Origin: Patescibacteria group bacterium
Lineage (GTDB): Bacteria > Patescibacteriota > Dojkabacteria > GCA-002793355
Assembly (NCBI GenBank): GCA_016860985.1
Contig: BOKM01000001.1
Location: forward strand, 317,716-381,715
DNA: 64,000 bases
Direction of reading: 5' to 3'
Positions within the stretch are counted from its first letter, which is position 1, and each line of letters starts with the position of its first letter. The position numbers and the translations under genes were made by a program. This document shows, one piece after another, positions 5,398 through 24,768 of this stretch. A model generated the notes under the pieces. That model was not told where the DNA came from. It did not search any database and saw nothing but the letters and a program-made list of their open reading frames with translations.

Positions 5398-6525
5398 TTA
5401 TTTAATATCGCTCGCAAGCGCCTCCCATGATTTTCTTTCTTCTTTGGACACCTTTTTTGGTATCACAATCTTGACTGCCAACTTTATATCTCCTTTTGTA
5501 GAGGAACCTAGTTTATAAGCTCCCATCCCTTTAGCAGTAAGGGTATCCCCCGGTTGAGTTCCTGCCGGAATCTTTAAATCATATTCTCCGTATGGTGTTT
5601 TAAGTGTAACAATTCCACCGAGTACTGCCTTAGCAGGATGCAGCTCTAGTTCGCTAAAAAGCGTTTCTTTATCTCTTCGATACTGCAAAAACTGCGACAC
5701 ATTTAACGTCATATATAAATCACCTGCTGGTCCGTTATGACGACCGACATTGCCTCCACCTCTGAATTTGAGTGTTAGTCCATCGTATGAACCTTGTGGG
5801 ATTTTAACATCGAGATGAACTTTTTCTGCGACTCTTCCAGTCGTTTTACACTGCGTGCAGGGATCGGAAATAGTTCGCCCTGTGCCTTGACATGTAGGAC
5901 AAGGAGATTGATACATAAAGTTTCCAAGTAGGGTTGCCTGCTGATATTGCACCATGCCAGACCCACCACATTTTACACAGCTAGTTGTCTTCTGCGACAA
6001 ACTGCCGCTCCCTTTACAAGACTTACACGTTCCGTAACGCTCATATTCAACGGTTACTTCACCACCCTTGTTGGCTGTATCAAATTGTATTTTTATTGTT
6101 ACTTCGCGGTCTTCTCCCTGTTCAGCTTCAACTGACTTTCGAGTGTTGCGCCTTGAAGCACCACCCATGCCTGCTCCAAAAAAATCACCGAACACACTAC
6201 CAAAAAGGTTTGACATATCGCCCATATCAAAAACCTGCGAATACTGAGACCAATCTCCACCCATGGGACTTCCGCCTTGAGTCCCTCCAAAGCCGCCTTT
6301 TACGCCGGCTTCTCCGTACTGGTCGTACATCTGGCGTTTTTGCGTATCCGACAAAATTTCGTATGCCTCACCTACTTCCTTAAATCTCTCTTCCGCATCC
6401 TTTTCTTTGTTGCGATCCGGATGATATTTAGCTGCGAGTTTTCGGTAGGCACGTTTAATTTCATCTTGGGTTGCGTTTTTTTCGACACCCAATACCTCAT
6501 AATAGCTTTTTCCTGATTTTGACAT
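5398..6525 (-). CDS. dnaJ: molecular chaperone DnaJ
   Basis: J-domain [34 protein letters not shown]-rich region, four CxxCxGxG zinc-finger repeats ([32 protein letters not shown]). Confidence 0.9.
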
Positions 6526-6552
6526 AGTTTCTTCCTTTCTTTATACTAGACA

Positions 6553-7356
6553 ATGCTCCCGATTCTACCAAAAATCGACACCTCACTACAAGAAACAGTA
6601 CCGCAACTGCCCAAACGACGTGTAAAAGCTCCACAAAAGCAGAAAAAGAGCACCGAATCTTCGACAAAGACTATCGCTCCATTTCTTCCAAAATTGTTTT
6701 TAATTATTGGGGTTGTACTTATATTTTCGCAAATCATCCCACTCGCCTTATCGGTTTACAATGGTTATTCACTTTCAGCAAACAGCTCAACCTTTCTACC
6801 TGTTTCGGAATCTTTCATACAAAAATTAACCAATGTTACTTATATTGATCCCGGAGCTGCGTGGTTTGAAGCAGTAGTCGCACAAAATCATGCGCCTCAG
6901 ATAGACCTCAACTACAGCAAGACTATGAAAATTTCGATTGACAACGCGAACATCTCACGTGTAAACCTTGCAGCGAATATCCCCGGTAATAACCCCGCTA
7001 TTTATGACGAAGCGTTAAAGCATGGTGTTGCTCACTTGAAAGGTACCTCTGTACCCGGTGACCCTGGATTAAGCGTGATTTATGGGCACAGTGGTGTAGC
7101 AGGTTTTTTTACTGGTAGAGGCAGCCCCCAGATAATTTTTTCTCGCCTTGATACCGTATCCATTGGTGATACAATGTCCATAGATAGGGACGGCAAAGAA
7201 CTACGTTACGTCGTTTCAGGAAAGAAAATTGTCGAGCCCCAGGACCTGACATTTATGAGCGAGCAAACAGATAAGGAGCGAGCGATTCTCCTCACTTGTT
7301 GGCCACTCGGTATCGGGACTAAAAGATTAATTATTATTGCTGATCGACTACAATGA
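6553..7356 (+). CDS. sortase family transpeptidase (N-terminal membrane anchor)
   Basis: TM segment LFLIIGVVLIFSQIIPLAL; catalytic His in IYGHSG; TLxTC-type cysteine motif AILLTCWP; conserved Arg near C-terminus. Its TGA stop overlaps the start of the next gene (ATGA). Confidence 0.7.
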   Translation: MLPILPKIDTSLQETVPQLPKRRVKAPQKQKKSTESSTKTIAPFLPKLFLIIGVVLIFSQIIPLALSVYNGYSLSANSSTFLPVSESFIQKLTNVTYIDPGAAWFEAVVAQNHAPQIDLNYSKTMKISIDNANISRVNLAANIPGNNPAIYDEALKHGVAHLKGTSVPGDPGLSVIYGHSGVAGFFTGRGSPQIIFSRLDTVSIGDTMSIDRDGKELRYVVSGKKIVEPQDLTFMSEQTDKERAILLTCWPLGIGTKRLIIIADRLQ

Positions 7357-8720
7357 ATAAAAAAGGACCAGTTATCGCATTATTATTTATAGGTATTGTT
7401 GGCATCGTTGTTGTAATTGCCATTTTGGTATCACGAGTACTCAATAACGGGGGAAATAATAATACAGGAACTATTGAACTCAACTACATGGGCTTGTGGG
7501 ATGTTCCAGAAGTTTATGAACCACTCATCCAAGAATATCAAGAAAAACACCCTAATATAAAGATTACCTATACAAAGGCAAGCTTTATCAATCAAAACAA
7601 TTTTTCTTATAAAGGTGTTTACCAAACCAATGCAGAAGAAAGAATAACTAGTGGTGCCGTCGATATTGTCCGTGTTCATCAAACATGGATTCCAAAATTA
7701 CTTCCACAGCTTTACGCCGCACCTTCAGACGTTATGACAGGGACTCAAGCAAAAGAGCTTTACTACCCAGCTGTCTACGAAGCAATAACGACCTCTAACA
7801 ACCTTGTTTACGGCGCGCCACAAATTGTTGACGGTCTTGTGCTCATTTACAACAAAGAATTATTTACGCAAGCACAACTTGACCCAAGAATATCAACAAA
7901 AGACTGGGATGTTACACTTCAAACTGCAAAAAAACTTACAAAGCGAAATGCAAACGGAACAATTGCGGTGGCAGGTATTAACATGGGGAGTGTTTCCAAT
8001 GTAAGAAGCTCACCAGAAATTCTCTTAACAATGCTCACCCAATCTGCAATTCCTGTAGTGAATGTCGATGCAGGAACAGGAAAAATTCAAGCAGATTTTG
8101 CAAGCCCAGAAGGAGCTGCAGCGATTAACCGCTTCTTTGAATTTGCTAATCAGAAGAATGATAAGAAAGAAGATATTGGTGCGTGGTCATCTCGAATGGA
8201 AGATGATTTACAAGCGTTTGCAAACGGCCGACTTGCCATGCTTATTGCCCCAAGCTGGAGAGTAATCGATCTTGTAGGAATGAACTCTGCATTACAGTTT
8301 GATACATTACCACTTCCTGTTCTTCCTGGAGCAAACCCCAATGTTCCGCAATACCTCTCTTCCTTCTGGATAGATGTTGTTTCTAAAAAATCAAAAAATC
8401 CAAAGGAAGCATGGGCTTTTCTTAAGTGGCTCGGTGAACCAGAACAACTTAGACGAGTCTACAAAGTGCAGACAGAAAAGCGACTCATTGGGAACCCCTA
8501 TCCTCGAAAAGACATGGCAACAGAACAAGCAAGTGCACCTTACATTAGCGCTGTATTAGAAATGGCGCCAAAGATGAAAAGTTGGCCCTTATATGACTAC
8601 GGTGTATGGGAAGAAACCTTTCGAAAAGGCTTGCTGGAATTTGAAGACCGTGGCGGTATTACAGAAGCAGATTTAAAGAAAATACAGGATCAGATAAACA
8701 ATTTAACTTTGAAACGCTAG
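7353..8720 (+). CDS. extracellular solute-binding protein (ABC-transporter family 1 type), orphan with no permease or ATPase nearby
   Basis: N-terminal TM anchor, about 450 aa. Family-1 SBP-like segments FANGRLAMLIAPSWR and SKNPKEAWAFLKWLGEPEQ. Confidence 0.65.
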   Translation: MNKKGPVIALLFIGIVGIVVVIAILVSRVLNNGGNNNTGTIELNYMGLWDVPEVYEPLIQEYQEKHPNIKITYTKASFINQNNFSYKGVYQTNAEERITSGAVDIVRVHQTWIPKLLPQLYAAPSDVMTGTQAKELYYPAVYEAITTSNNLVYGAPQIVDGLVLIYNKELFTQAQLDPRISTKDWDVTLQTAKKLTKRNANGTIAVAGINMGSVSNVRSSPEILLTMLTQSAIPVVNVDAGTGKIQADFASPEGAAAINRFFEFANQKNDKKEDIGAWSSRMEDDLQAFANGRLAMLIAPSWRVIDLVGMNSALQFDTLPLPVLPGANPNVPQYLSSFWIDVVSKKSKNPKEAWAFLKWLGEPEQLRRVYKVQTEKRLIGNPYPRKDMATEQASAPYISAVLEMAPKMKSWPLYDYGVWEETFRKGLLEFEDRGGITEADLKKIQDQINNLTLKR

Positions 8721-8723
8721 CCC

Positions 8724-11700
8724 GTGAGAAAAGAAAGAACAAGACAGTGGTTAACACTCTTCTCCTTATTTATGTTATTGGTACTGCCAACTGCGATTGT
8801 CGGTTTCAATAATTTCTCAACCTTTGTTAATCGTGCCTTTGCAAAGCCTTTCCAGAAACAAGAGGCAACCTTTTTAGTGCAATCAGAGAGTTCTGCTGGT
8901 ATTGCAACAGGCTCAAAATTCTCCTTAAAGCTTACAGCAGCCACACCAAAAACACTTCCGCTTAAACATTTTGCTGCTTTTATTGAGTTTGATAAATCAA
9001 AAGTTGATATCTCTTCGGTTCAACTTCAAAATACAAAACTACTTAAAGTAGTTGCCTACCAAAATGGCTATCTTGTGCTTCCAGTAAATGCTGCTGTACC
9101 CACAAACTTTAGAGAGCTTTACCCCGAGACCTGCGCAGCAAACGATTCTTGTGATTTTAGCCAGTTTTCCGCAGGAACTGTCGACCTCGTTATAAATGGA
9201 GTTCTTCTTTCCGCACTTACTGAACAACAGCGCCCAATTAAGGTTACAATGCTAGGAGCCTCAGAAACAAGTACCGTTGCAATTTGGAACGAAAAAATTA
9301 TTCTCCCTTCGCTTAATTTGGGAGAGTTTGTAAAAAACAACGCACCGAGTTTTACCTCAGAACCTCAACCGTATATTCACGAAGCAAAGCTATTTGAGTA
9401 CGATATCTCAATCGCAGACAAAGATAGTGACCCTGTCACTCTATCTCTCGAATGCCCAACAACTGCATTCTGTGACAAATTGCAAACAGCACCAGAAGGT
9501 ATCACACTCGAAGGTTCAACTCTGCGATGGGATACTCCTCTCTACGCTGAATCACCTTATACCATTACTGTTTATGCGAACGACGGAAAGAGTGTATCTA
9601 CACAAACCTTTTCTTTGAAAGTTCTCCAAACAGATACATCGTACTTCTCCTGCACGTTTACCCCAGCACTGTCGGTAAAAATCCTTGATTATAGAGTAGA
9701 AACGCCTTTAATCATATTTGCTCAAAGTTCTGCAGATTTATCGAAAGCCGTAGTAACACTTGAAAAAGATGGTGTCACAGAAAAAACCTTTACATACGAC
9801 TTTACTCCCAGCAAAAAAACAATTATTCTTGATCAATCAAGTAATCCCGCACTTACCTACAAGTTTAAAGAAGGTAACTACACTGGTACCGCTACCTTTA
9901 CCTCTACAAGTGGTGCTAACTTTACCTGCGAACTAACCAACCCAACCGTTTCCTTTACCTCTTTACTGCGCCAAGCATTTATTCACACTGTCGAAAATAT
10001 AGTAGAGGTTGTGCAAGCACAGGGGCTTACCGTTGGAACAAACACTGCGCCGACCTTTACGTCAGACCCAATGGCACCTGCAACAAGTGGAGGGTCGTCA
10101 CCATCAGTCTCTTTCGTATACGGAACGCCGTACAGTTTTACACTTAAAGCGCAAGATAGCGATGGTGACCCGTTGCAACATACAATTGTTGCAAAACCAG
10201 CATGGGCATCCGTTGCAGTTTCATCTAGCACAAGTACCACGGGGCCATCGAACTATAATATCCAATTTACTGGCACTCCGGCAGAAAAACACGCAGGCAG
10301 CAACCTTTTTTCAGTTAGTATCAATGATGGTTATGGTCACTATATTACACGCACATGGGTAATCAACGTGGATTATCCAGATAACGACATCCCGAGAGTA
10401 ACCATTATTGAACCCGTAAAAGCAGTAACGCGATATCAAGGCAGCCCTTTTCTTCTCAAGTGGGAGGTTGAAGACAGACACCAAGTAGTCTCCTTTAAGA
10501 TTCAATACACAAAGAATCTTTCTTCAGGATCAAAAACGACTTACAACAACAATGTTTCGTATAAGACACGTGGGCTAACGATTAACACCTCTTCCATGCC
10601 TCCTGGTGACTACTACTTCATTGTTTCTGCAGTTGACGGATTTTCTCCACCAGCAACAGGTGCCGGATATACAGCAATGGTTAGAATACTCCCACCTAAA
10701 CCGAAACCATCTCCAACACCAAAGCCAACCAGCACACCCTCACCAACCGCTACTCCGACGGCAACGTCAACGGTAACTGCTTCACCAACACCCACACCTA
10801 CCCCCACTGCAACAGAAGAACCAACTCCTGAACCAGACGAAATTACGATTCAAATAACAACACCAAAAAATCAAGCTCAAATTGCACCAAATGAGTTCCA
10901 AGCAGTCATAACACTCGCTGCCTCAAAAGAAGGTGAACTTCAAAAATCTGGAATAACCGTTCGATTAGATACAGAAGTTATTACTGATAAATTTACCTTT
11001 TCAGCAGAAAAAGGAAAAACCCTTACCGCGAGTTATAAACCCACAACTTTATTAGAACCGGGAATACACGAACTTATCGTTACAGCAAAAGACAGTAAAG
11101 GTAAAGAGAAAGAAGCCAAAGTCTCCTTTACTGTTCTTTCAGACACTCAACCTACAGATAATAACGTAAACTTTTTGGGGTTTGATATTCCAAAACACTT
11201 ATATACGCTCTTTGTAGCGGCGCTCATACTCATCATTATTCTTATTCTGCTTCCGCTTATACTTTACTTCGCTTTTAGAAACTCAGACAAAGAATCCCCC
11301 CCTCCAAACCGCCGATTACCCGCTGCTCCAACCGGTTCAAGTGCACCACCATCACTAAAAACTCCTGGTACTGCCTTTGCTCAACCAGTCATTACCAAAG
11401 CTAACGAAGGTCCAGCATTCCAGCCCGTAGTAATACCAAAAAATGATATTCCGACGGAAGCGCCAAAGATTACACCTCCAGAAACGTTACAAAGCTTTGT
11501 TGCACAAAGTTCAATGAACGAAGCACAACAAAAAGCAGAGGGTAATCGAGTACCACAACAAGTCGCAGGACCTACGTTTACACCTCCCCCACCGGTGCAA
11601 CCAACTAAACCTTTTGTTCCAATGGTAAAAGAACAAAGTATTAAGCCAGCGACTTCGATAAAGAATGATCCACCACCACAAATAAGACCAACTCCATTTA

Positions 11701-12095
11701 CTCCAAAAGAGCAGTCCTCTCAGGAAGCACCAAAATCACCAACCTCCGGAGTTAACGTACCGAGCGCTTCCCCCCAACCGACACAAGTACAAGCACCAGC
11801 TCCCGCACAAAAAGCGCAACCTGTCCAAATGCCTAGAGTTGAGCAACAAGTTATGAACCAGAAGCCTGAACTTACGCCAAAAACTACAGTTCAGCTCCCA
11901 CCAACAATCCCTGGAAAAGTTGCAAGCACGCAGCCATCGAACGTAAAAATACCAGAACCAAAAACAGTGCCACCTATTCCATCAACTGTTTCCCAGCCAC
12001 CACAGGTGACTGCTATGCCAAAGCAACCAGCTTCACTCCCGATTCAAGCAAGCAATCTGCCACCAGAGTCACCCTCTTTACCAATCGGGAAATAG
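8724..12095 (+). CDS. large surface protein: signal anchor, Ig-like (putative Ig / cadherin-like) domains, Pro/Thr linker, TM helix, about 290-aa Pro/Gln-rich C-terminal tail
   Basis: 1123-aa ORF starting 4 nt after the SBP gene. Repeated NxAPxFTSxP...DxDxD motifs; PT-rich linker PKPKPSPTPKPTSTPSPTATPTAT; strongly hydrophobic LFVAALILIIILILLPLILYFAF near residue 830, followed by a proline-rich low-complexity tail. Confidence 0.7.
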   Translation: MRKERTRQWLTLFSLFMLLVLPTAIVGFNNFSTFVNRAFAKPFQKQEATFLVQSESSAGIATGSKFSLKLTAATPKTLPLKHFAAFIEFDKSKVDISSVQLQNTKLLKVVAYQNGYLVLPVNAAVPTNFRELYPETCAANDSCDFSQFSAGTVDLVINGVLLSALTEQQRPIKVTMLGASETSTVAIWNEKIILPSLNLGEFVKNNAPSFTSEPQPYIHEAKLFEYDISIADKDSDPVTLSLECPTTAFCDKLQTAPEGITLEGSTLRWDTPLYAESPYTITVYANDGKSVSTQTFSLKVLQTDTSYFSCTFTPALSVKILDYRVETPLIIFAQSSADLSKAVVTLEKDGVTEKTFTYDFTPSKKTIILDQSSNPALTYKFKEGNYTGTATFTSTSGANFTCELTNPTVSFTSLLRQAFIHTVENIVEVVQAQGLTVGTNTAPTFTSDPMAPATSGGSSPSVSFVYGTPYSFTLKAQDSDGDPLQHTIVAKPAWASVAVSSSTSTTGPSNYNIQFTGTPAEKHAGSNLFSVSINDGYGHYITRTWVINVDYPDNDIPRVTIIEPVKAVTRYQGSPFLLKWEVEDRHQVVSFKIQYTKNLSSGSKTTYNNNVSYKTRGLTINTSSMPPGDYYFIVSAVDGFSPPATGAGYTAMVRILPPKPKPSPTPKPTSTPSPTATPTATSTVTASPTPTPTPTATEEPTPEPDEITIQITTPKNQAQIAPNEFQAVITLAASKEGELQKSGITVRLDTEVITDKFTFSAEKGKTLTASYKPTTLLEPGIHELIVTAKDSKGKEKEAKVSFTVLSDTQPTDNNVNFLGFDIPKHLYTLFVAALILIIILILLPLILYFAFRNSDKESPPPNRRLPAAPTGSSAPPSLKTPGTAFAQPVITKANEGPAFQPVVIPKNDIPTEAPKITPPETLQSFVAQSSMNEAQQKAEGNRVPQQVAGPTFTPPPPVQPTKPFVPMVKEQSIKPATSIKNDPPPQIRPTPFTPKEQSSQEAPKSPTSGVNVPSASPQPTQVQAPAPAQKAQPVQMPRVEQQVMNQKPELTPKTTVQLPPTIPGKVASTQPSNVKIPEPKTVPPIPSTVSQPPQVTAMPKQPASLPIQASNLPPESPSLPIGK
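10686..10839 (+). repeat. low-complexity CCA/ACN-rich tract encoding the Pro/Thr linker of the surface protein
   Basis: Visible ccaaca/ccgac-type reiteration. It generates a mirror GVGVG ORF on the opposite strand. Confidence 0.5.
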
Positions 12096-12164
12096 TACCA
12101 ATACAGGTCAGAGACTCGTACCCTCGACTCGACAAACGTAAGGTCATAAGTGCTATAATTACCG

Positions 12165-13976
12165 ATGAAACAGATGACATATCTTGAGGTTAGAAATGCG
12201 TACTTAGACTTTATGAAAAGTAAAGGTCACCAAGAGGTGCCAAACGCTTCTCTCGTTCCAGAAAATGACCCAACTCTTTTGTTTGTAAATTCGGGAATGT
12301 TTCCACTTGTTCCGTTTCTACTTGGCGAGACACACCCTCTCGGCACACGCCTTGTTAATGTACAGCGTTGTGTAAGAACAGAAGATTTGGAAGAAGTTGG
12401 CGATATATCTCACGCCACTGCCTTTGAAATGATTGGCAACTGGTCTTTAGGTGACTATTTTAAAGAACAAGCATTGCAACAGACCTACGAGTTCTTTATT
12501 GAACGTCTTGGCATTCCTGTAGAACAAATATATGGTTCTGTATTTGAAGGAGACGAAGATGCGCCACAAGATACAACTTCAATTGAACTGCTAAAAGCAA
12601 TATTCAAAAAATATGGAATAGATGCAAAGGCCGGAAAGAATGAACGTATTCAGCTCTATGGTAAAAAGAAAAACTGGTGGGGGCTCGCCGGTGGTGGACC
12701 TTGCGGTACAACATCAGAAATTTTTTACGACACCGGAAAAGAACCTTGTGGCCCAGATTGTCACATAAACTGTGATTGCGGTAAGTATATCGAAATTGGA
12801 AACAACGTCTTCATGGAGTTTCTTAATAAAGACGGAAAGTACACTCCACTCGCGAAGCAAAACGTAGATTTTGGAGGCGGATTAGATCGTATTGTCATAT
12901 TACTTCAAGGAGTAACCAGCTACCACGAAACCGATATTTACAAACCGATTGGTGATTATGTCCGAAGCATTGCAAAGGTACAAAACACAAAATCAGAGAG
13001 AATTATCATTGATCACGTTAAATCAGCTACCTGGATAATAATGGATGGCGTACTTCCTGGAAAAACCGAAAAAGAGTATGTTCTTCGCAGATTAATCAGA
13101 AGGGCAATCCGTCACGGAAAAATACTTGGAATCGAAAAGCCCTTCTTGCGCGAGGTTGGAGAAGTAGCAGTTGATCAGTTTGCTCCTGTTTACTCTCAAC
13201 TGGCTGAACAAAAGGACCACATTCTCGAAGTTCTTGCCCAAGAAGAAACAAAATTCCTCAATACACTAAAAGGTGGCATGACTCAAGTAGCAAAACTGGT
13301 CGAGCAGCACAAAAATAGCGAATTTACCAATGCACAGGGAGAAAGTTTTTCGTTATACGAAAGTTTTGGATTTCCTCCCGAAATGTTCCTTGAAGAGTTA
13401 ACAAATGCGGGTATTTCTGTTTCTCAAGACCTCTTTTGGCAAAACCACAAAGCAAAGGCAATGGAACATCAAGAAAAATCACGTACTGCAACTCAAGGAT
13501 TGTTTAAAGGTGGACTCGCAGATACATCTGAAAAATCAACTCATTATCACACGACTACACACTTACTCTTAGCTGCACTGCGAAAGATTGTTGGAACTCA
13601 TATTTACCAAAAAGGGAGCAATATTACTCCCGAAAGGCTACGCTTTGACATTCCAAATCCAGAAAAACTCACACCAGAACAGATTAAAGAAGTAGAGCTA
13701 CTTATAAATCAAAAGATACAAGAAGGCTTACCCGTTGATTTTGAAGAAATGCCAAAAGATAAAGCACTTGAGCTAGTACCTTTTGCCGCTTTCGAAGGGA
13801 AATACGCCGATGTTGTCAAAGTTTATACGGTAGGAACAAAAGAAGCACCATTTTCTCAAGAACTTTGTAATGGACCACATGTAAAAAATACTTCTGAAAT
13901 ATCTGGCACCTTTCGCATCACGCAGCAGGAAAAGATAGGTAATGGAATCTTAAGAATAAAAGGAGTATTACAATAA
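12165..13976 (+). CDS. alaS: alanine--tRNA ligase, short form (603 aa) lacking the C-Ala domain
   Basis: N-terminal AlaRS signature EVRNAYLDFMKSKGH...LFVNSGM; editing-domain zinc motifs HTTTHLL and CNGPH. Followed by ruvX-mltG, as in Firmicutes. Confidence 0.85.
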   Translation: MKQMTYLEVRNAYLDFMKSKGHQEVPNASLVPENDPTLLFVNSGMFPLVPFLLGETHPLGTRLVNVQRCVRTEDLEEVGDISHATAFEMIGNWSLGDYFKEQALQQTYEFFIERLGIPVEQIYGSVFEGDEDAPQDTTSIELLKAIFKKYGIDAKAGKNERIQLYGKKKNWWGLAGGGPCGTTSEIFYDTGKEPCGPDCHINCDCGKYIEIGNNVFMEFLNKDGKYTPLAKQNVDFGGGLDRIVILLQGVTSYHETDIYKPIGDYVRSIAKVQNTKSERIIIDHVKSATWIIMDGVLPGKTEKEYVLRRLIRRAIRHGKILGIEKPFLREVGEVAVDQFAPVYSQLAEQKDHILEVLAQEETKFLNTLKGGMTQVAKLVEQHKNSEFTNAQGESFSLYESFGFPPEMFLEELTNAGISVSQDLFWQNHKAKAMEHQEKSRTATQGLFKGGLADTSEKSTHYHTTTHLLLAALRKIVGTHIYQKGSNITPERLRFDIPNPEKLTPEQIKEVELLINQKIQEGLPVDFEEMPKDKALELVPFAAFEGKYADVVKVYTVGTKEAPFSQELCNGPHVKNTSEISGTFRITQQEKIGNGILRIKGVLQ

Positions 13977-13979
13977 CGT

Positions 13980-14357
13980 ATGTACATTTTAGGTATTGAT
14001 TTTGGAACAAAGAAGCTAGGGCTTGCAATCCTTGAATCTACTACGCAGATTTGCAGTCCGCTTCCTTTGCTTCAGAACGATAAAGAGATGTGGGAGAACC
14101 TACAAAAGGTTATTTCCGAGTATCGAGTCACACATATTATTCTTGGGCTCCCCTCTTACGAAGAAACGGCAAAAAAAGTTGAGCGTTTTAAACAAAACCT
14201 TCTCAGTAAATTTGCGGTTAATGTCGATTATTCCCCCGAAGATCTCACTTCGTTAACAGTAAAAAAGCAATTGACTTCTAAAAAACAGAAGCAGAATCTA
14301 GACTCGTATAGCGCTGTCGCGATCCTCGAACAATGGGCGAGCAGCAATATTAATTAA
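13980..14357 (+). CDS. ruvX: Holliday junction resolvase-like protein RuvX/YqgF
   Basis: N-terminus MYILGIDFGTKKLGLAILE is typical of YqgF/RuvX. 125 aa. Conserved position after alaS. Confidence 0.8.
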   Translation: MYILGIDFGTKKLGLAILESTTQICSPLPLLQNDKEMWENLQKVISEYRVTHIILGLPSYEETAKKVERFKQNLLSKFAVNVDYSPEDLTSLTVKKQLTSKKQKQNLDSYSAVAILEQWASSNIN

Positions 14358-14368
14358 TACAGCAAAAA

Positions 14369-15481
14369 ATGGCATTTTACTCTGGAAAAATGGTAAAAGA
14401 ACAATCAAAAAAGCGTTCACCACTTGGAATCATACTTGCAGCATTATTTCTTATCGGAGTAGCAGCTATTGGCGTTGCGCTCAATACTCCTTCTATTAAG
14501 ACCAAGATTGACACGTACAAGTGCTATTGGGACGGAACACTAATCACAAAGAATCAAAGCGACAGAACTGACATTCAACCAATAACCATTGTTTCAGGGC
14601 AAGATCCACTTTCTGTAGGTCGTCTTCTTCAAGAAAAAGGTGTTATAAAAAATGCTAGCGACTTCCTTTGTTATGTTCATAAAATTAATGCTGGAGATAA
14701 AATACAGGCGGGCTATTACGAAATTCAACTTCCAATTTCAATCGAACAACTTGTACCATACCTTCAGAGCTCAAGAATTCCAACGGCTCGAATGACAATT
14801 CCAGAAGGACTCAGATACGACGAAGTTGCGGACAGGATAGATACAGCACTTGGGAAAGAAAACGCAATAAAGAAGTTTAATAAAGATGAGTTTCTTACCC
14901 TTGCAACTAATAGTGAAATACTTGCAGAACTCCCCTATCTTAAAGGCAAACCCTCAGCCGAAGGGTTTTTATTCCCTGATACGTATGAAGTCGCCAAAAA
15001 TGCAACAAGCAGAGAGGTTTTTGACTTGCTTATAGGCACATTCAAGAGAAAAGTAATTGACGGAAGTGAACTTTCCTCCTCTAAAGAGTTAACCCCTTAT
15101 CAGGTAATTACTCTTGCGTCGATTATCGAAAAAGAAGCTGGTAAATCCTACGAAGAAAAAAGAATAGTTGCCGGTATCTTATTGAAACGTATGAAAAATG
15201 ATTGGCTTCTTCAGGTTGATGCAACCTTTTTATACGAGAAAAAAGATTGGAAGGCAGTTATCTATCAGCAGGATAAACTAAGCAACTCTGCCTACAACAC
15301 ATACAAACGCATGGGGCTACCGCCTACTCCTATTTCAAATCCAGGCTTAGACAGTATCAACGCAGTACTTGACCCGCAAGAGAGTAAATATTGGTACTAT
15401 CTTCATGGCACAGACGGGGGCATCAGATATGCGCAAACAAACGAAGAACATATACGAAACATAGACTTGTATTTGCGTTAA
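14369..15481 (+). CDS. mltG: endolytic murein transglycosylase MltG (YceG family)
   Basis: N-terminal TM, then a YceG-like domain with a conserved GLPPTPISNPG-type motif and LYSM-like fold. Conserved alaS-yqgF-yceG order. Confidence 0.8.
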   Translation: MAFYSGKMVKEQSKKRSPLGIILAALFLIGVAAIGVALNTPSIKTKIDTYKCYWDGTLITKNQSDRTDIQPITIVSGQDPLSVGRLLQEKGVIKNASDFLCYVHKINAGDKIQAGYYEIQLPISIEQLVPYLQSSRIPTARMTIPEGLRYDEVADRIDTALGKENAIKKFNKDEFLTLATNSEILAELPYLKGKPSAEGFLFPDTYEVAKNATSREVFDLLIGTFKRKVIDGSELSSSKELTPYQVITLASIIEKEAGKSYEEKRIVAGILLKRMKNDWLLQVDATFLYEKKDWKAVIYQQDKLSNSAYNTYKRMGLPPTPISNPGLDSINAVLDPQESKYWYYLHGTDGGIRYAQTNEEHIRNIDLYLR

Positions 15482-15502
15482 CTTCTGTGCGACAATGACC
15501 TC

Positions 15503-16936
15503 ATGAACCTACGATTTAAACGAACAAAAAAGACGGACCCAACTCACCTTGATCCTGAGACGAGCGACCAACCAGCGATTTCAAAGGTAGCCAAAAAGAA
15601 CAACCCTGGAATGAGATTTATTGGATTAGTCCTCCGCATATTTGCTTTTCTGATTCCGCTTGCGTTAATCGGCGCTGCAGTACCGTATGCAATAATGCAA
15701 AGTTCAAACGTTTTACAACCATTTTTCAAAGCAGCAAATTTTACTGTTAATGGAAGTTCAACAGCATTTTCAACGTTGAAAAAAGAACCTACACTAAGAA
15801 AGGATGCTAATAACATGACTAACGTGCTGATTGTTGGTATCGATACCAGAGCGAAAGGCAGCAAGTTACTAAATACAGATACAATCATTCTTGCATCTTA
15901 CAATCACCGAACAAATGAGGTCGCAATGATCTCTTTTCCAAGAGACTTAAATGTAAACTATCCAAACACACCAAGTATCGGAAAGATTAACGCAACCTAC
16001 GCTTACGGAGAGATGAGAAAAGATGGTGGCGGGATTGAATATCTCAGACAGCTTATCGAATCAATTTCAGGTCAGAAAATTCAGTATCATGTTATGGTAG
16101 ATCTAAAAGGGTTTACTACAATCATAGATTTGCTAGGTGGGGTCGATGTTAATGTAGACACTGCATTTACTGGTGACTATCCGACCGAAACATATGGATG
16201 GACAACTGTCACTTTCAAGAAGGGTGTCGTGCATATGAATGGAAACAAAGCACTCCAATACGCCCGAATACGACATGCTTACCCTTACTCAGAAGCTTCT
16301 GACTTTGCTCGTGCAAAAAGACAGCAAAAAGTTATTCAAGCTGTAATTGATAAAGCCACTAAAGTAGACACGCTTCAAAATACAAAGAAGATTTTTGAAA
16401 TCCTTGGTGCGGTAGCACAAAATATCAAGATAAACCGAGTGACTCCAGAAGACATTGAAGCAGGACTTATGATCTTAAAAGACAAAGGCAAGCCAGTATC
16501 GTACTCAATGGTTCTTGACCCTGCTGCCGGTGGTTATGGCCGCTTAATTAAGCGTGGCGCAGGTTATCTTTACACACTTGAACCAACCGCAGGCAAAAAC
16601 AACTGGAGCCAAGTAAAATCGTTTATAAAAGATTATGCTGCCGCTCCTGGGCTTGTTACTCTGAAATCTCCAATTTATGTTTATAACAACGGAAAAGATA
16701 ACTATAACTCTGCCTTTAGCAACATGAGCAATCGCTATTATTATGCCGACTTCCGCAACGGCGGTTCTCAAAAGAATTTACCGAAAACAGGAGTTTACAA
16801 TATTGGTGGAAGTAAGTCGGCAACCGCGGCACAATATCTTGCCAACACATACAAAATTCCATTGCAAACTGTTGACGATACTGTTTCTGTTCCAAAACCA
16901 AAGGGAGCAGCAATTGTCATAGTGTTAGGAAAATAA
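15503..16936 (+). CDS. LytR-CpsA-Psr (LCP) family cell-wall polymer transferase
   Basis: TM anchor followed by LCP core NVLIVGIDTRA...RTDTIILASYN...SFPRD. Confidence 0.75.
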   Translation: MNLRFKRTKKTDPTHLDPETSDQPAISKVAKKNNPGMRFIGLVLRIFAFLIPLALIGAAVPYAIMQSSNVLQPFFKAANFTVNGSSTAFSTLKKEPTLRKDANNMTNVLIVGIDTRAKGSKLLNTDTIILASYNHRTNEVAMISFPRDLNVNYPNTPSIGKINATYAYGEMRKDGGGIEYLRQLIESISGQKIQYHVMVDLKGFTTIIDLLGGVDVNVDTAFTGDYPTETYGWTTVTFKKGVVHMNGNKALQYARIRHAYPYSEASDFARAKRQQKVIQAVIDKATKVDTLQNTKKIFEILGAVAQNIKINRVTPEDIEAGLMILKDKGKPVSYSMVLDPAAGGYGRLIKRGAGYLYTLEPTAGKNNWSQVKSFIKDYAAAPGLVTLKSPIYVYNNGKDNYNSAFSNMSNRYYYADFRNGGSQKNLPKTGVYNIGGSKSATAAQYLANTYKIPLQTVDDTVSVPKPKGAAIVIVLGK

Positions 16937-16939
16937 CGC

Positions 16940-17860
16940 ATGCTTACGTTAATAGCTACAGGAGACAGAGAATCTGACTTGTACCATTGGTACGAAGTAC
17001 GTGAAAAACATCCGGAGTTAAAAAGTATTCCAAGTATCGACGCCTCGACACCTCAAGGCGCAGCAGAGTTTGCACGTCGAGTTGAAACTATCTCATTTTT
17101 TGGTAACACAGATATCATTGTTGCTCATTCTGTTGAGATAACCCCGCAATTAGTTCACCTCATCCATGAATATACAGGCACTATTTACATTGTGACAACG
17201 GTAGGAAAAGTACCAAAAACACTACAAGCAAAAAGCGCTTTTGACAAATGCACCGACCAGATGCTAAAGAACCTCATTTCAACAAGACTTCGAACACTAT
17301 CCCTCTCGCCGACGAAAGAAGATATGGCAAAGCTCTATTTTACACTCTCAATTGAGGAGTATTCCGGTAAAGAAAGACTCTCACCACTTCGTTGCCGTAC
17401 GTTAGTAAGACAGCTTATGACTATAGAAGGAAGCACACCAGAAGATGCAAGAAAGTTATTCACAAATTTGATTGGCTTAGTGGAAGGCAAAGCTAGCCAA
17501 TGGGAACTTCTTGCTAACTTGTTTACAACGCAAAAAAGAAAACAAAAAGAGTACTTTCAGTCGCTGTCCGAACTCATGACACCCTACGAAATCATGTCTC
17601 ATGCGAAATCAACATTGCTCTTGGTATATGCCATCATGCTTGGACGCAAAGACCATCTCGATTCAGCATCAATTGCAACAAAACTTGGTAAGCACCCCTT
17701 TTATATAAGTTCCCTACTTAGGACTGTAGAAGAAAAAGGCATTACCATAGACAAGGTCAAGAAAATACTAAGCCGTCTTCTGAATTTAGAAATGGCTTTA
17801 AAGTCAGGAAAATTCGATGACGAGTATTTTGGTTTCGAAGTGCTGCTCGCAACAATGTAG
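16940..17860 (+). CDS. hypothetical protein (weakly reminiscent of DNA polymerase III delta subunit)
   Basis: 306 aa, helical. The N-terminal LIATGDRESDL loosely resembles the holA N-terminus. Not confirmed. Confidence 0.3.
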   Translation: MLTLIATGDRESDLYHWYEVREKHPELKSIPSIDASTPQGAAEFARRVETISFFGNTDIIVAHSVEITPQLVHLIHEYTGTIYIVTTVGKVPKTLQAKSAFDKCTDQMLKNLISTRLRTLSLSPTKEDMAKLYFTLSIEEYSGKERLSPLRCRTLVRQLMTIEGSTPEDARKLFTNLIGLVEGKASQWELLANLFTTQKRKQKEYFQSLSELMTPYEIMSHAKSTLLLVYAIMLGRKDHLDSASIATKLGKHPFYISSLLRTVEEKGITIDKVKKILSRLLNLEMALKSGKFDDEYFGFEVLLATM

Positions 17861-17861
17861 A

Positions 17862-18281
17862 CTACCTAAGTTGGAATGGATTCCCATTAATTCCATACCA
17901 CTCGCCCTCCGATACGACGATAACATACCGATAGGACAATTCATCTTGTTTTAGTAAAGAAACCGAATGAGATGTTGATGGTGATTCTCCATTCGCAGAA
18001 AGTACCTTATATGGCAATGATGAGAAATCTGCATATGATTTGCCCAGCAAAATAAACCCTGTGCAAGCTTCGCGTGTTTCCCAAGTTATCTTCATTCGTC
18101 CGACGTCATCTGTATCTATCGTGAATTGCGAGGGCTCACAAGGCTGTTTGACGGTATTGTCTGAACTTACTAAATACTCTTGTTCTCGTACGTATTTTAC
18201 CCACAAAAATGCCATTATTAAGGGAATTAGCAATGATAAGACTACGCCAATTAACGCAATTTTTCTTAGTAACTGCTTCAT
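17862..18281 (-). CDS. membrane-anchored/secreted small protein with FN3-like (purple-acid-phosphatase-N-like) motif
   Basis: N-terminal TM helix IALIGVVLSLLIPLIMAFLWV; motif MKITWETREACTGFILLGKSY. Confidence 0.4.
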   Translation of the reverse strand: MKQLLRKIALIGVVLSLLIPLIMAFLWVKYVREQEYLVSSDNTVKQPCEPSQFTIDTDDVGRMKITWETREACTGFILLGKSYADFSSLPYKVLSANGESPSTSHSVSLLKQDELSYRYVIVVSEGEWYGINGNPFQLR

Positions 18282-19006
18282 TATCTGTGACCGCGTTCAA
18301 TAACGATGCCCTTTGGTAATTTACTTCGGTTGCCCATCGCGTTTTTCATTATTTTTACCAAGATAGAACCTACGGTAAAAATCAGCACAATACCTACAAC
18401 TAAAAGAAGATATGTTTGTTGTCTATCAGACAAAAATGGTTGAGCTGTCGCTACTGTAGATTCTCCTAATACTTCTTCTAGCTCCGAAGTTGTTGCGTCT
18501 GGCAATACCTGAGCATTTCTTGTTGGAATTACTACACTATTAGGATGGAAGGGATCTTGCCAAATAGCGACTGTTTTTGCACCTTTAACATCTGCTTCTG
18601 GGGTATCAATCGTTACAGTGAACGTTTGATCTTGCACATCACCGGCAATAGTTGCTGCTCGAACGGTAATTGTGAATACTCCACCAACAGAAGGGACCGT
18701 GCCGGTTAACTGTTGTGTCTCAGGAATCCAACTGACCCAATCTGGCTTTGCGAGTACAGATAGTGTCACTTCACTACCTGAAAGTGAGGTCGCTAACACT
18801 TTATAGACAAAGGTTGAATCTGCAGAAACAAGGATTGGAGGGACTGAAATATATCGAATATCGTCGACCACAGCGACCTCAGTAGGTGTAGGTGTAACTG
18901 TTGCTGTATTTTTTGTGGGATTAAGCACTTGCTGAAGCAACATCGGTAAACCAAACGTTACCATAAGAATAAGTAAAACGACGAAAAACTTCAGACCTGA
19001 CCTCAT
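18281..19006 (-). CDS. cell-surface protein with Ig-like domain and C-terminal TM anchor
   Basis: Signal/TM at N-terminus and a Thr/Pro spacer. Motif LAKPDWVSW resembles AKPAWASV of the 1123-aa protein. C-terminal hydrophobic helix plus basic tail. Confidence 0.45.
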   Translation of the reverse strand: MRSGLKFFVVLLILMVTFGLPMLLQQVLNPTKNTATVTPTPTEVAVVDDIRYISVPPILVSADSTFVYKVLATSLSGSEVTLSVLAKPDWVSWIPETQQLTGTVPSVGGVFTITVRAATIAGDVQDQTFTVTIDTPEADVKGAKTVAIWQDPFHPNSVVIPTRNAQVLPDATTSELEEVLGESTVATAQPFLSDRQQTYLLLVVGIVLIFTVGSILVKIMKNAMGNRSKLPKGIVIERGHR

Positions 19007-23317: not shown

Positions 23318-24136
23318 ATGTATGAACACGCAATTCCACAGAACATCATGGAGTATGAGTTTGAGCTTTTTGCAGGCTTAACTCTCAAGCAATTTATCTA
23401 CGTCGCAGTATCGGGCGGGTTTGCCTTTGGTTTATACGAATTAAACAGAGCTGGCCTTTTTCCCGCTTTCTTTGCATGGATTACTATTCCAATAATCCTT
23501 TTGGTTGGCGTCACACTTGGCTTAGGCTCGTATCAAAAACGAACAATGGAAGATTGGTTCAATGCATTTGCCAAAGCAAATGCGCTAACCCTTCGCCGAG
23601 TATGGAAAAAAGATACAAAAGCAGTTACTCACGATAATTTTCATGCGACAAAACCGCACTCGCTTCCTTCGTACCTTGCGGTGTATTTTATGAACCAAGA
23701 CGAGTTTACGCGATTAATGCGCAACAAAGGGGCAATAGAGGATTCTCATGAACCTACCACTATCGTACAGCCACTTCTTCACGCAGAGAATATCCCAACC
23801 ATTCAAGAGGTTATTCAACTTACTCAAGCTAATGCCTCAGATTTTGCGGAACCTGGTGTAACGCTTCCAGCAATACCAAACACGATTGCCTTCAAGTTAC
23901 AAGAAGATAATCTTCCAATGGAAGGTGTAGTCGCCTATGTAAAAGATGCCAATATGAGCGTCGTCGGTGCGCTTCGAAGTAACAAAGATGGCATTGTTTA
24001 TTTTAATCAAGGATTTCAGAACGGAGATTACGAAATCGAATTTCAATCGCCAGAAGCTGCAACGTTTCCGAAAGTGAGAGTGCAATTTCAAGGTCTCACT
24101 TACCCACTTATTAATATATCACCAACAGGTTCATAA
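23318..24136 (+). CDS. VirB3/PrgI-like membrane protein with C-terminal extracytoplasmic domain (T4SS-like module)
   Basis: Two adjacent N-terminal TM helices (FIYVAVSGGFAFGLY and FFAWITIPIILLVGVTLGLG). Lies immediately upstream of the VirB4-like genes. Confidence 0.4.
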   Translation: MYEHAIPQNIMEYEFELFAGLTLKQFIYVAVSGGFAFGLYELNRAGLFPAFFAWITIPIILLVGVTLGLGSYQKRTMEDWFNAFAKANALTLRRVWKKDTKAVTHDNFHATKPHSLPSYLAVYFMNQDEFTRLMRNKGAIEDSHEPTTIVQPLLHAENIPTIQEVIQLTQANASDFAEPGVTLPAIPNTIAFKLQEDNLPMEGVVAYVKDANMSVVGALRSNKDGIVYFNQGFQNGDYEIEFQSPEAATFPKVRVQFQGLTYPLINISPTGS

Positions 24137-24138
24137 TT

Positions 24139-24768
24139 ATGGCACTCGGTCCAGGGCAAAGCCCCATAACTCAAGGTACGCAAGATATTCTTGAAGTAGC
24201 GGACATCATGAATGATTTGCTCATTACTCGAAATGGAACCGTTTGTTTAATCTTAAAAACTTCTTCAGTAAACTTTGACCTTTTATCCGAAGACGAGCAA
24301 GACATTAAAATTGCATCCTTCGGTTCTATGGTTAACTCACTCGACTTTCCTCTACAAATTCTTATTGAAACAAAGAAAATTAACATCAGTAAATATGCTG
24401 ACTTTCTAGATACAATGGACACTCCAGACCTTAGCCCCGGACTAAAGCGCCAATTTACGGTTTATAAACAGTTTATAAGAAACCTTATTACAAATAAGGA
24501 AATCCTCGATAAACGTTTTATGATTGTGATTCCCTATAGAACAGGTACCTCTGTTGCGCCAAACGCAACAATCGAGCAAAAACAGAAGCTAATCGAGAGC
24601 GCGACAGGCTATTTGTATCCAAAAAAATATCACGTGATAAAAATGTTAAAAGGCATGTCGCTTGAAGCTGAGCAGATGTCGAACAGCGAAATTGCCAAGT
24701 ATCTTTATTCAGTTTACAACCCAGCGGACTCAATCCGTTTAGATGATTTACCTCAAATATACGTATAA
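24139..24768 (+). CDS. VirB4 N-terminal-domain-like protein (first part of a split VirB4, or separate accessory)
   Basis: LLITRNGTVCLILKTSSVNFDLLSEDEQD resembles the N-terminal region of VirB4/TrbE ATPases. Its stop TAA is followed 1 nt later by the ATG (24770) of the ATPase gene. Confidence 0.45.
   Translation: MALGPGQSPITQGTQDILEVADIMNDLLITRNGTVCLILKTSSVNFDLLSEDEQDIKIASFGSMVNSLDFPLQILIETKKINISKYADFLDTMDTPDLSPGLKRQFTVYKQFIRNLITNKEILDKRFMIVIPYRTGTSVAPNATIEQKQKLIESATGYLYPKKYHVIKMLKGMSLEAEQMSNSEIAKYLYSVYNPADSIRLDDLPQIYV

Follow-up and report, generated by a model that had tools for sequence, protein, structure and literature searches.

A solute-binding protein without nearby transporter genes, encoded between a sortase and a large surface protein in Dojkabacteria

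Several described systems come close to parts of the locus reported here, all of whose components belong to known families. MalE-like oligosaccharide-binding proteins of the CUT1 type serve ATP-binding cassette (ABC) importers, and classical solute-binding proteins (SBPs) of transporters are not known to have large cytoplasmic regions. Orphan SBPs already exist in other families: the Bug/TTT family and the SBPs of sensor kinases or chemoreceptors likewise have no cognate transporter gene nearby. In Gram-positive sortase-pilin and sortase-adhesin loci, the gene of a His-Cys-Arg sortase adjoins that of a large surface protein with Ig-like domains. We studied a locus in a 64,000-nucleotide stretch of a Patescibacteria group bacterium of the Dojkabacteria (assembly GCA_016860985.1, contig BOKM01000001.1, positions 317,716 to 381,715 of the forward strand), referred to as the window. 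Three consecutive genes of the window, the trio, encode a sortase, a transmembrane (TM)-tethered SBP and a large surface protein, BIG:

6553..7356, + strand: sortase, 267 amino acids (aa) (Pfam Sortase match)
7353..8720, + strand: TM-tethered family-1 (CUT1/MalE-fold) SBP, 455 aa (SBP_bac_1 and SBP_bac_8 matches)
8724..12095, + strand: BIG, type-I membrane surface protein, 1123 aa, GTG start (Big_9 match, AlphaFold model)

These open reading frames (ORFs), checked by ORF calls and Pfam, are exactly those that a first-pass annotation of the sequence had reported at 6553-12095, i.e. a sortase, a TM-anchored family-1 SBP and a 1123-aa repeat protein. The ATGA-type overlap it described is present where the sortase stop meets the SBP start, while its 4-nt spacing is 3 nt (SBP stop to the GTG of BIG).

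The SBP is an orphan by genomic context. We tentatively read it, with a chance that we put a little below even, as a glycan-binding envelope component that works with BIG and the wall machinery, and not as the receptor of a dedicated importer.

The solute-binding protein and its gene neighbours

Loci were collected by a scan with an SBP alignment of one genome per GTDB species. This gave 80 loci, from Dojkabacteria, Microgenomates lineages and WWE3, some being labelled Saccharibacteria, Gammaproteobacteria or Clostridia; all were treated as belonging to the Candidate Phyla Radiation (CPR). Relatives of the window SBP carry the annotation Candidatus Dojkabacteria or Patescibacteria, which places the window in a CPR bacterium of the former WS6 group. 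With seven further CPR loci the set amounts to 87 loci (1.40 Mb), the gene content of which was established by ORF calling and phmmer labelling. No CUT1 permease was found within 10 kb of the SBP in any of them (0/87). In the positive control, the non-CPR locus L008 whose SBP is 26% identical, two CUT1 permeases were detected directly downstream. Within the window itself, neither an ABC ATPase signature nor an ORF matching a CUT1 permease was found. The first-pass annotation had noted an SBP with no permease or ATPase nearby; this holds throughout the window and within 10 kb in the 87 CPR loci.

The most ordinary explanation would be that the SBP is a sugar-uptake receptor feeding a CUT1 permease and an ATPase encoded elsewhere in the genome of about 1 Mb, its present position being incidental. 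We consider this unlikely. No CPR locus has a permease within 10 kb, against two directly downstream in the nearest non-CPR relative. Published inventories for other Patescibacteria also bear indirectly on this question. K02027, the ‘multiple sugar transport SBP’, is among the few transporters retained by Patescibacteria (Tian et al., PMC7137472), and the supplementary KEGG tables of Patescibacterium, which cover 10 genomes of which two are closed, contain K02027 and K02035 SBPs (PMC11809585). The permeases K02025 and K02026 are not in these supplementary files, where the permease rows found are of the FtsX and ABC.CD type only, and this too argues against an importer. Finally, a long stretch rich in Pro precedes the TM helix in the majority of the family, and transporter SBPs are not known to have one.

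The SBP matches Pfam SBP_bac_1 (E=3e-27, 96.8 bits) and SBP_bac_8 (E=2e-19, 71 bits). It is composed of a TM helix at about residues 5-31, a linker of about 9-12 residues modelled with low confidence, and a two-lobe domain at residues 40-455 (AlphaFold2 (AF2) pLDDT 86). It has 10 Trp, no Cys and no lipobox, and the invariant columns of the family include six Trp and five Tyr. Structure prediction and fold comparison, which the first-pass annotation had proposed for the SBP, gave a MalE-type fold. The structural neighbours, only 13-23% identical, are Thermotoga Tlet_1705 (5ci5), the Listeria beta-1,2-glucooligosaccharide SBP Lin1841 (5ysb), Clostridium thermocellum CbpB (7x0i) and CpMnBP1 (4r9f). 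From the ligands of these neighbours and the invariant Trp and Tyr we infer that the SBP binds an oligosaccharide; the matches do not discriminate the ligand further.

The SBP differs from CUT1 SBPs in several respects besides its low identity. A Cys-less TM anchor takes the place of the lipobox in 81/87 family members, none of the CPR members has a permease or ATPase neighbour, the neighbouring gene is that of a sortase or a VanW-type protein, and many members have a Pro-rich region of 100-500 aa before the TM helix. A minority of CPR SBPs (WWE3 and others: L083 at 9875-11245, L086, L087 and L061) do carry a lipobox reading LTGC, LTAC or LSGC, so lipoprotein processing exists in some of these lineages. 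Anchoring by an N-terminal helix is also known from the sugar-binding proteins of the Sulfolobus ‘bindosome’, held at the cell surface in this way; P0018 and P0019 do not share the KKG-P start of the window SBP. Processing of the type IV prepilin kind (MNKKG-P) was rejected on the same ground and because there is no Glu at +5.

An exhaustive phmmer search with the SBP against 1.84 billion representatives returned 3190 matches at E<=1e-3 and 293 at E<=1e-30. So few matches mark the SBP as a member of a small divergent clade, remote from mainstream SBPs and seen here in CPR genomes only. In many family representatives the SBP domain begins at residue 100-520, being preceded by the TM helix and, before that, by low-complexity sequence rich in Pro. 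Among the 95 representatives where both TM helix and SBP domain could be placed, the region preceding the helix has a median length of 102 aa with 19% Pro; it reaches at least 100 aa in 49/95 and at least 300 aa in 9/95. The extreme cases are P0247, P0229, P0256, P0265 and P0235, SBPs of 820-914 aa with about 400-520 Pro/Gln/Ser-rich low-complexity residues before the TM helix and SBP domain. At the level of loci, SBPs of the trio type have a median of 12 residues before the helix, and those next to a VanW-type gene a median of 59, up to 166, with 22% Pro.

Two gene arrangements account for these two types of SBP. In the first, a divergent DnaJ gene is followed on the other strand by sortase, SBP, BIG, AlaRS, RuvX, YceG and LytR-CpsA-Psr (LCP) genes. 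It is found in 42 loci, i.e. the window and 41 others, the order being the same and the intergenic gaps of the trio mostly between -61 and +23 nt. Identity to the window proteins falls in parallel for the three, from 73% to 30% for the SBP, 71% to 33% for the sortase and 64% to 24% for BIG, the SBP being the best conserved over most of the range. The conservation of the trio in related genomes, which the first-pass annotation had named as a check, is thus beyond chance (42 loci, SBP identity 30-73%).

In the second arrangement a PG4-VanW gene stands head-to-head with the SBP gene, which is followed by nucleotidyltransferase-like, GroES and GroEL genes; this orientation is seen in 28/29 VanW-bearing Microgenomates loci. 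The two arrangements do not mix: sortase and VanW occur together in 0 loci, BIG in 0 VanW loci, and VanW in 0 trio loci, the window included. Bollinger et al. (2024, PMC11348318) showed that VanW domains have peptidoglycan L,D-transpeptidase function. Like the sortase, PG4-VanW proteins are cysteine transpeptidases acting on peptidoglycan; the link is by neighbourhood only. Sortase and VanW families were both reported as CPR-enriched (PMC6744442). The first-pass annotation had seen the SBP as the partner of a sortase and an adhesin. This pairing does not define the family, which depends neither on sortase nor on BIG and has a PG4-VanW partner in Microgenomates. Bug/TTT-type orphan SBPs are not, to our knowledge, linked to cell-wall transpeptidase genes; they belong to other families and occur as soluble proteins or lipoproteins rather than as bitopic proteins that have Pro-rich regions in the cytoplasm. 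In literature searches on sortase and SBP in CPR, neither the trio nor the SBP-VanW pairing nor Pro-rich bitopic SBPs were found described.

The sortase and its candidate signals

The sortase matches Pfam PF04203 (66.9 bits for a cut-off of 26.6, E=1.9e-18) and the generic NCBIfam model TIGR01076 (65.4 bits for 39.35), and stays below every NCBIfam class cut-off. Membership of class C was rejected, since NF033745 gives 79.9 bits for a cut-off of 160 in an alignment that covers the C-terminal half of the profile only. The catalytic residues are His179 (VIYGHSG), Cys249 (LLTCWPLG), which is the sole Cys, and Arg258. Each is 100% conserved in 42 orthologues, in agreement with the membrane sortase with Cys and His of the first-pass annotation. 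The same orthologues conserve a DPGxxWF motif at residues 99-105, which could be lid-like. The N-terminus is a basic, Pro-rich, cytoplasmic stretch of 45 aa followed by a single TM helix at about residues 46-66; the chain ends 9 residues past Arg258, with no C-terminal TM helix. Among solved structures, the class C sortase 8t28 matches best (E=1.2e-15), and the His, Cys and Arg align with its catalytic region. The enzyme may be the general housekeeping sortase of the lineage, anchored by its N-terminus, and its canonical-type substrates (xPxTG followed by a TM helix) would then be those encoded near the trio in sister clades and not in the window.

LPxTG-like signals at the C-terminus were looked for in every ORF of the window and of 88 loci. 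No window ORF has such a sorting signal; neither the SBP nor BIG has a canonical LPxTG or LAxTG, as already pointed out in the first-pass annotation. The LPxTG-like matches in the window all lie in spurious frames and were discarded. Genuine sorting signals were found in sister loci only. In L052, a 738-aa NHL-repeat/Big_13 protein (8200-10416, + strand) encoded directly after the BIG homologue ends with LPQTGEG, a TM helix and KNK. The SBP of this locus has a lipobox and its sortase reads TLMTCAPPG where that of the window has LLTCWPLG.

In 23 loci of main-clade Dojkabacteria, a DUF11/TIGR01451 protein of about 590 aa is encoded just past the HolA-like gene (e.g. L045 18911-20683, + strand; L051 18967-20730; L041 19030-20775). 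These proteins have a conserved xPxTG (TPQTG, QPQTG, VPETG and others) followed by IFDS, a TM helix and a conserved basic tail of 45 aa ending in KYFEE...KK. The xPxTG is present in 21/22 of those whose C-terminal region falls within the locus, and one NCBI copy carries the name ‘isopeptide-forming fimbrial’. From these features the DUF11 proteins are probable sortase substrates or pilins. In a phmmer search with the xPxTG/DUF11 protein no orthologue came up in the window. Of 132 matches in the database, 120 were listed, and the window-type clade is not represented among these, which is not proof of absence. Since sister clades encode xPxTG proteins in the neighbourhood, Dojkabacteria sortases probably use PxTG-type signals. 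The surroundings of the trio thus appear to be a place where sortase substrates get encoded, the clade of the window being without them locally. Written as peptides, the candidate sortase signals are TPQTGIFD and LPQTGEG on one side and NNVNFLGFDIPKH on the other.

The comparison with Gram-positive sortase-pilin and sortase-adhesin loci is therefore a mixed one. The adjoining genes of a His-Cys-Arg sortase and a large Ig-like-domain protein, the class C character of the best solved relatives and the xPxTG DUF11 proteins of sister clades in the same neighbourhood bring the locus close to them. In contrast, no LPXTG or pilin-type signal is found downstream, the window sortase lacks the C-terminal TM helix of class C, and an SBP gene lies between.

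The large surface protein

BIG matches Pfam Big_9 marginally (24.6 bits for a cut-off of 23.6), with Cadherin_5 and Big_13 below their cut-offs. A signal sequence h-region at aa 10-28 is followed in the AF2 model by six beta-sandwich domains, at about aa 50-200, 205-305, 308-405, 445-550, 555-660 and 705-805. The confidence of this model is moderate (mean pLDDT 73, pTM 0.40), and its Foldseek matches are generic multi-Ig and cadherin ectodomains (DSCAM, contactin, cadherin). BIG also has three invariant Cys pairs, from which its ectodomain is taken to be extracytoplasmic. The GTG start is backed by an N-terminus conserved in homologues, MKKxxxRQxLTxFSLFMLLVLP; the public copy (P0033, 1107 aa, 100% identical) begins 16 codons downstream at an ATG (8772 instead of 8724). 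The other features of BIG are:

10701..10835, + strand: Pro/Thr-rich linker, aa 660-704, between domains 5 and 6 (sequence; pLDDT <50 at 663-704)
11172..11201, + strand: juxtamembrane motif FLGFDIPKHL (family conservation; modelled as a short hairpin outside domain 6)
11208..11282, + strand: TM helix, aa 829-853 (hydropathy; AF2 helix 824-853)
11283..12092, + strand: Pro-rich tail of 270 aa (P 23%, Q 10%), predicted cytoplasmic (composition)

The Ig/cadherin-like repeats reported by the first-pass annotation are thus borne out by the six domains, and its term adhesin is not: BIG is a type-I membrane protein, anchored by a TM helix and extended by a long tail predicted to be cytoplasmic, and not a wall-anchored adhesin. 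The tail, probably disordered, ranges from 16 to 417 aa in orthologues. Its composition resembles that of the Pro-rich regions N-terminal to the TM helix in Microgenomates SBPs. Composition and neighbourhood together hint that SBP ectodomain, TM helix and Pro-rich cytoplasmic tail may form a single functional unit, which Microgenomates have as one fused protein and Dojkabacteria have divided between SBP and BIG.

The first-pass annotation had further suggested that the SBP, decoupled from a transporter, serves in adhesion. The genomic context agrees with the decoupling. The second part, in which an SBP fold recruited as an adhesin or lectin would act jointly with the sortase and BIG in attachment to a host or partner cell, we find very unlikely on balance. 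CPR bacteria are thought to be episymbiotic, and CPR-enriched families have been tied to surface functions (PMC6744442). In BIG, Ig-like domains are stacked distally, past the Pro/Thr linker of 45 residues, and this distal part diverges fast and varies in domain number, as expected of an exposed adhesin. The SBP fits less well. Its tether of about 10 residues keeps it at the surface of its own membrane, under the wall, a poor place for a host adhesin, with neither a wall-spanning linker nor a sorting signal. It is the best conserved of the trio for most of the range and occurs in Microgenomates in the absence of sortase and BIG, a pattern more in line with housekeeping than with host-specific adhesion. 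For BIG alone an adhesin role is plausible.

The juxtamembrane motif of BIG has the consensus [IF][FL]G[YFLM]x[IV][SP]K[RK] and lies 7-13 residues before the TM helix. It was found in 42 downstream genes, including that of L015, with a tail of 16 aa, and that of L005, which is not homologous to BIG and has a tail of 5 aa. It is not present in L052, where GF alone is left, nor in L070 and L074, the two loci with no sortase nearby. The motif could be a docking or processing site.

One possibility is that BIG is the cognate substrate of the sortase by way of this non-canonical motif, with the SBP as an accessory of the reaction. The motif is the best conserved segment of a fast-evolving protein, its distance from the TM helix is fixed in 42 genes, its L005 and L015 versions come with a short tail resembling that of a sorting signal, and it is missing where no sortase is near. 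However, the correlation of motif and sortase absence comes from one clade only, and cleavage would cost the protein its TM helix together with as many as 417 aa of tail. Sister-clade Dojkabacteria, moreover, retain recognisable xPxTG signals. Because the motif has no Pro-x-Thr core, and because a regular expression served to anchor its alignment and so makes the Gly look more conserved than it is, we hold such a sorting signal to be highly improbable.

BIG also resembles the haloarchaeal S-layer glycoprotein (PGF-CTERM/ArtA), which is multi-Ig, with a Thr/Pro-rich stretch and a Gly-Phe motif before a C-terminal TM helix. It differs by its motif, by a tail of 90-400 aa after the TM helix and by its neighbour, a true sortase and not an archaeosortase. 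A PGF-CTERM/archaeosortase substrate was rejected: the motif reads FLGF and not PGF, and the TM helix is followed by the 270-aa tail. Membership of the S-layer glycoproteins was rejected likewise, the sole NCBIfam match (E=0.057, not significant) being one of Thr-rich haloarchaeal low complexity in the Pro/Thr linker.

Gene order and a proposed role in the envelope

The trio is the promoter-proximal part of a conserved Dojkabacteria cell-envelope gene string, the other elements of which are:

6519..6547, + strand: promoter-like site TTGACA-17-TATACT (11/12 consensus match only; top score in 6300-18000)
12165-13976, + strand: alanyl-tRNA synthetase, AlaRS (Pfam)
13980-14357, + strand: RuvX (Pfam)
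14369-15481, + strand: YceG/MltG (Pfam)
15503-16936, + strand: LCP (Pfam)
16940-17860, + strand: HolA-like (Pfam)

The promoter-like site ends 5 nt 5' of the sortase ATG, so that a transcript starting from it would be leaderless or nearly so. Upstream of the sortase, DnaJ is divergent. The gap between BIG and AlaRS is 69 nt, those from AlaRS to HolA are 3-21 nt, and the order AlaRS-RuvX-YceG-LCP-HolA is kept in 40+ loci. No terminator-like site was seen on the + strand upstream of 15213, and Rfam and tRNA scans of 6553-12095 gave no match. The three-gene operon of the first-pass annotation is consistent with co-directional genes behind a single strong promoter-like site; it is nevertheless not a discrete unit, as the tight spacing runs on to HolA at 17860.

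The AlaRS has 603 aa, i.e. the catalytic core and a tRNA_SAD domain (580-647 aa in related loci), and is much shorter than a typical bacterial AlaRS of about 870 aa. Two small membrane proteins are encoded convergently with the string (17862-19006, - strand), one of 139 aa and one of 241 aa with a He_PIG Ig-like domain. This pair (135-139 and 240-246 aa) is kept at the same position in L001, L002 and L003. Further on, type IV secretion/conjugation-like genes lie at 23318-26638 (+ strand): a PrgI-family gene (23318-24136), an unannotated ORF of 209 aa and a VirB4/TraG-like ATPase (24743-26638). These same genes come after LepA in L005. Another envelope-related gene (41015-42808, + strand) encodes a membrane-anchored protein of 597 aa with a PGA_cap (capsule synthesis, CapA-like) domain.

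The analysis shows the structure of the genes, their domains and folds, their conservation, the lack of permeases in the vicinity and the alternative partners of the SBP family. From this we infer for the SBP a glycan ligand, a non-transport role and a coupling to BIG. It would be a MalE-fold glycan-binding ectodomain, kept within a few nm of the membrane and acting with its envelope neighbours. The oligosaccharide bound might be a cell-wall glycan or its precursor, or one that is scavenged. BIG would be a wall-spanning, TM-anchored protein of six Ig-like domains with a disordered Pro-rich cytoplasmic tail, and would give in trans the TM helix and the tail that Microgenomates SBPs have in cis. 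The recurrent neighbours of the SBP are a sortase, a VanW-type gene, MltG and LCP. Sortases, VanW-type L,D-transpeptidases, MltG and LCP proteins all act on membrane-proximal cell-wall intermediates.

Several observations weigh against this proposal. The absence of CUT1 permeases concerns the 10 kb on either side of the SBP in the loci and the 64-kb window, not a whole Dojkabacteria genome. The structural matches of the SBP are all genuine transporter SBPs, and nothing in its model speaks against docking to a permease. The argument on Pro-rich tails in cis and in trans is one of composition, not of homology, and CPR membrane proteins may often have such tails anyway. Gene spacing is tight everywhere: the window is 97.7% coding, its median same-strand gap is 12 nt and 17/53 pairs overlap. 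Tight gaps and overlaps being the norm, the ATGA overlap alone is not beyond chance; it was dropped as evidence of coupling once the gap distribution had been measured. Moreover, the region from PNPase to HolA is syntenic throughout Dojkabacteria, and adjacency may therefore reflect frozen gene order and not function. Part of it, AlaRS-RuvX-MltG, is an old widespread cluster, as in alaS-yrrK-mltG of Bacillus subtilis.

These last points favour an explanation in which the trio encodes three independent envelope proteins with no coupling, held side by side in a compact, slowly rearranging genome, where flanking housekeeping genes (DnaJ, NusA, IF-2, AlaRS, RuvX and HolA) are conserved in order as well. 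Three kinds of locus depart from what it predicts. In L070 and L074 the SBP-BIG pair has moved jointly to other surroundings, where no sortase is near. Insertions lie between sortase and SBP in L046 and L052, and all three genes are still within a few kb. In L005, which belongs to an intermediate lineage, the third gene has been replaced by that of the non-homologous protein of 274 aa, which keeps the IAGF-TM signature. We accordingly judge frozen synteny rather improbable.

The glycan-binding envelope component proposed here can be extended to a more specific model. The SBP would then represent a family of bitopic non-transport receptors, seen here in CPR genomes only, the MalE-fold domain of which binds a cell-wall glycan or lipid-linked precursor and presents it to, or regulates, cysteine transpeptidases directed at peptidoglycan. 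In Dojkabacteria this enzyme would be the sortase, in Microgenomates the VanW-type L,D-transpeptidase. The Pro-rich tail would link this domain to the cell interior, in cis in Microgenomates and from BIG in Dojkabacteria. As a corollary, the juxtamembrane motif of BIG (IFG-x-I-x-KR) would be the docking or processing site. In this full form the model is speculative, and we give it little chance of being right.

CPR bacteria (Patescibacteria) have tiny genomes, few transporters, and a poorly understood envelope biology and host dependence. Should the SBP (K02027) be without a permease, sugar uptake would have been wrongly deduced from K02027 in metabolic reconstructions. In that case its repeated pairing with two unrelated wall-directed cysteine transpeptidases, and its disordered cytoplasmic tails, would point to an undescribed module of envelope assembly or sensing, in lineages with no known cell-wall accessory factors. 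For a first biochemistry of a CPR sortase system, the trio offers targets that are concrete and expressible, namely the ectodomain of the SBP, the sortase domain and D4-D6 of BIG.

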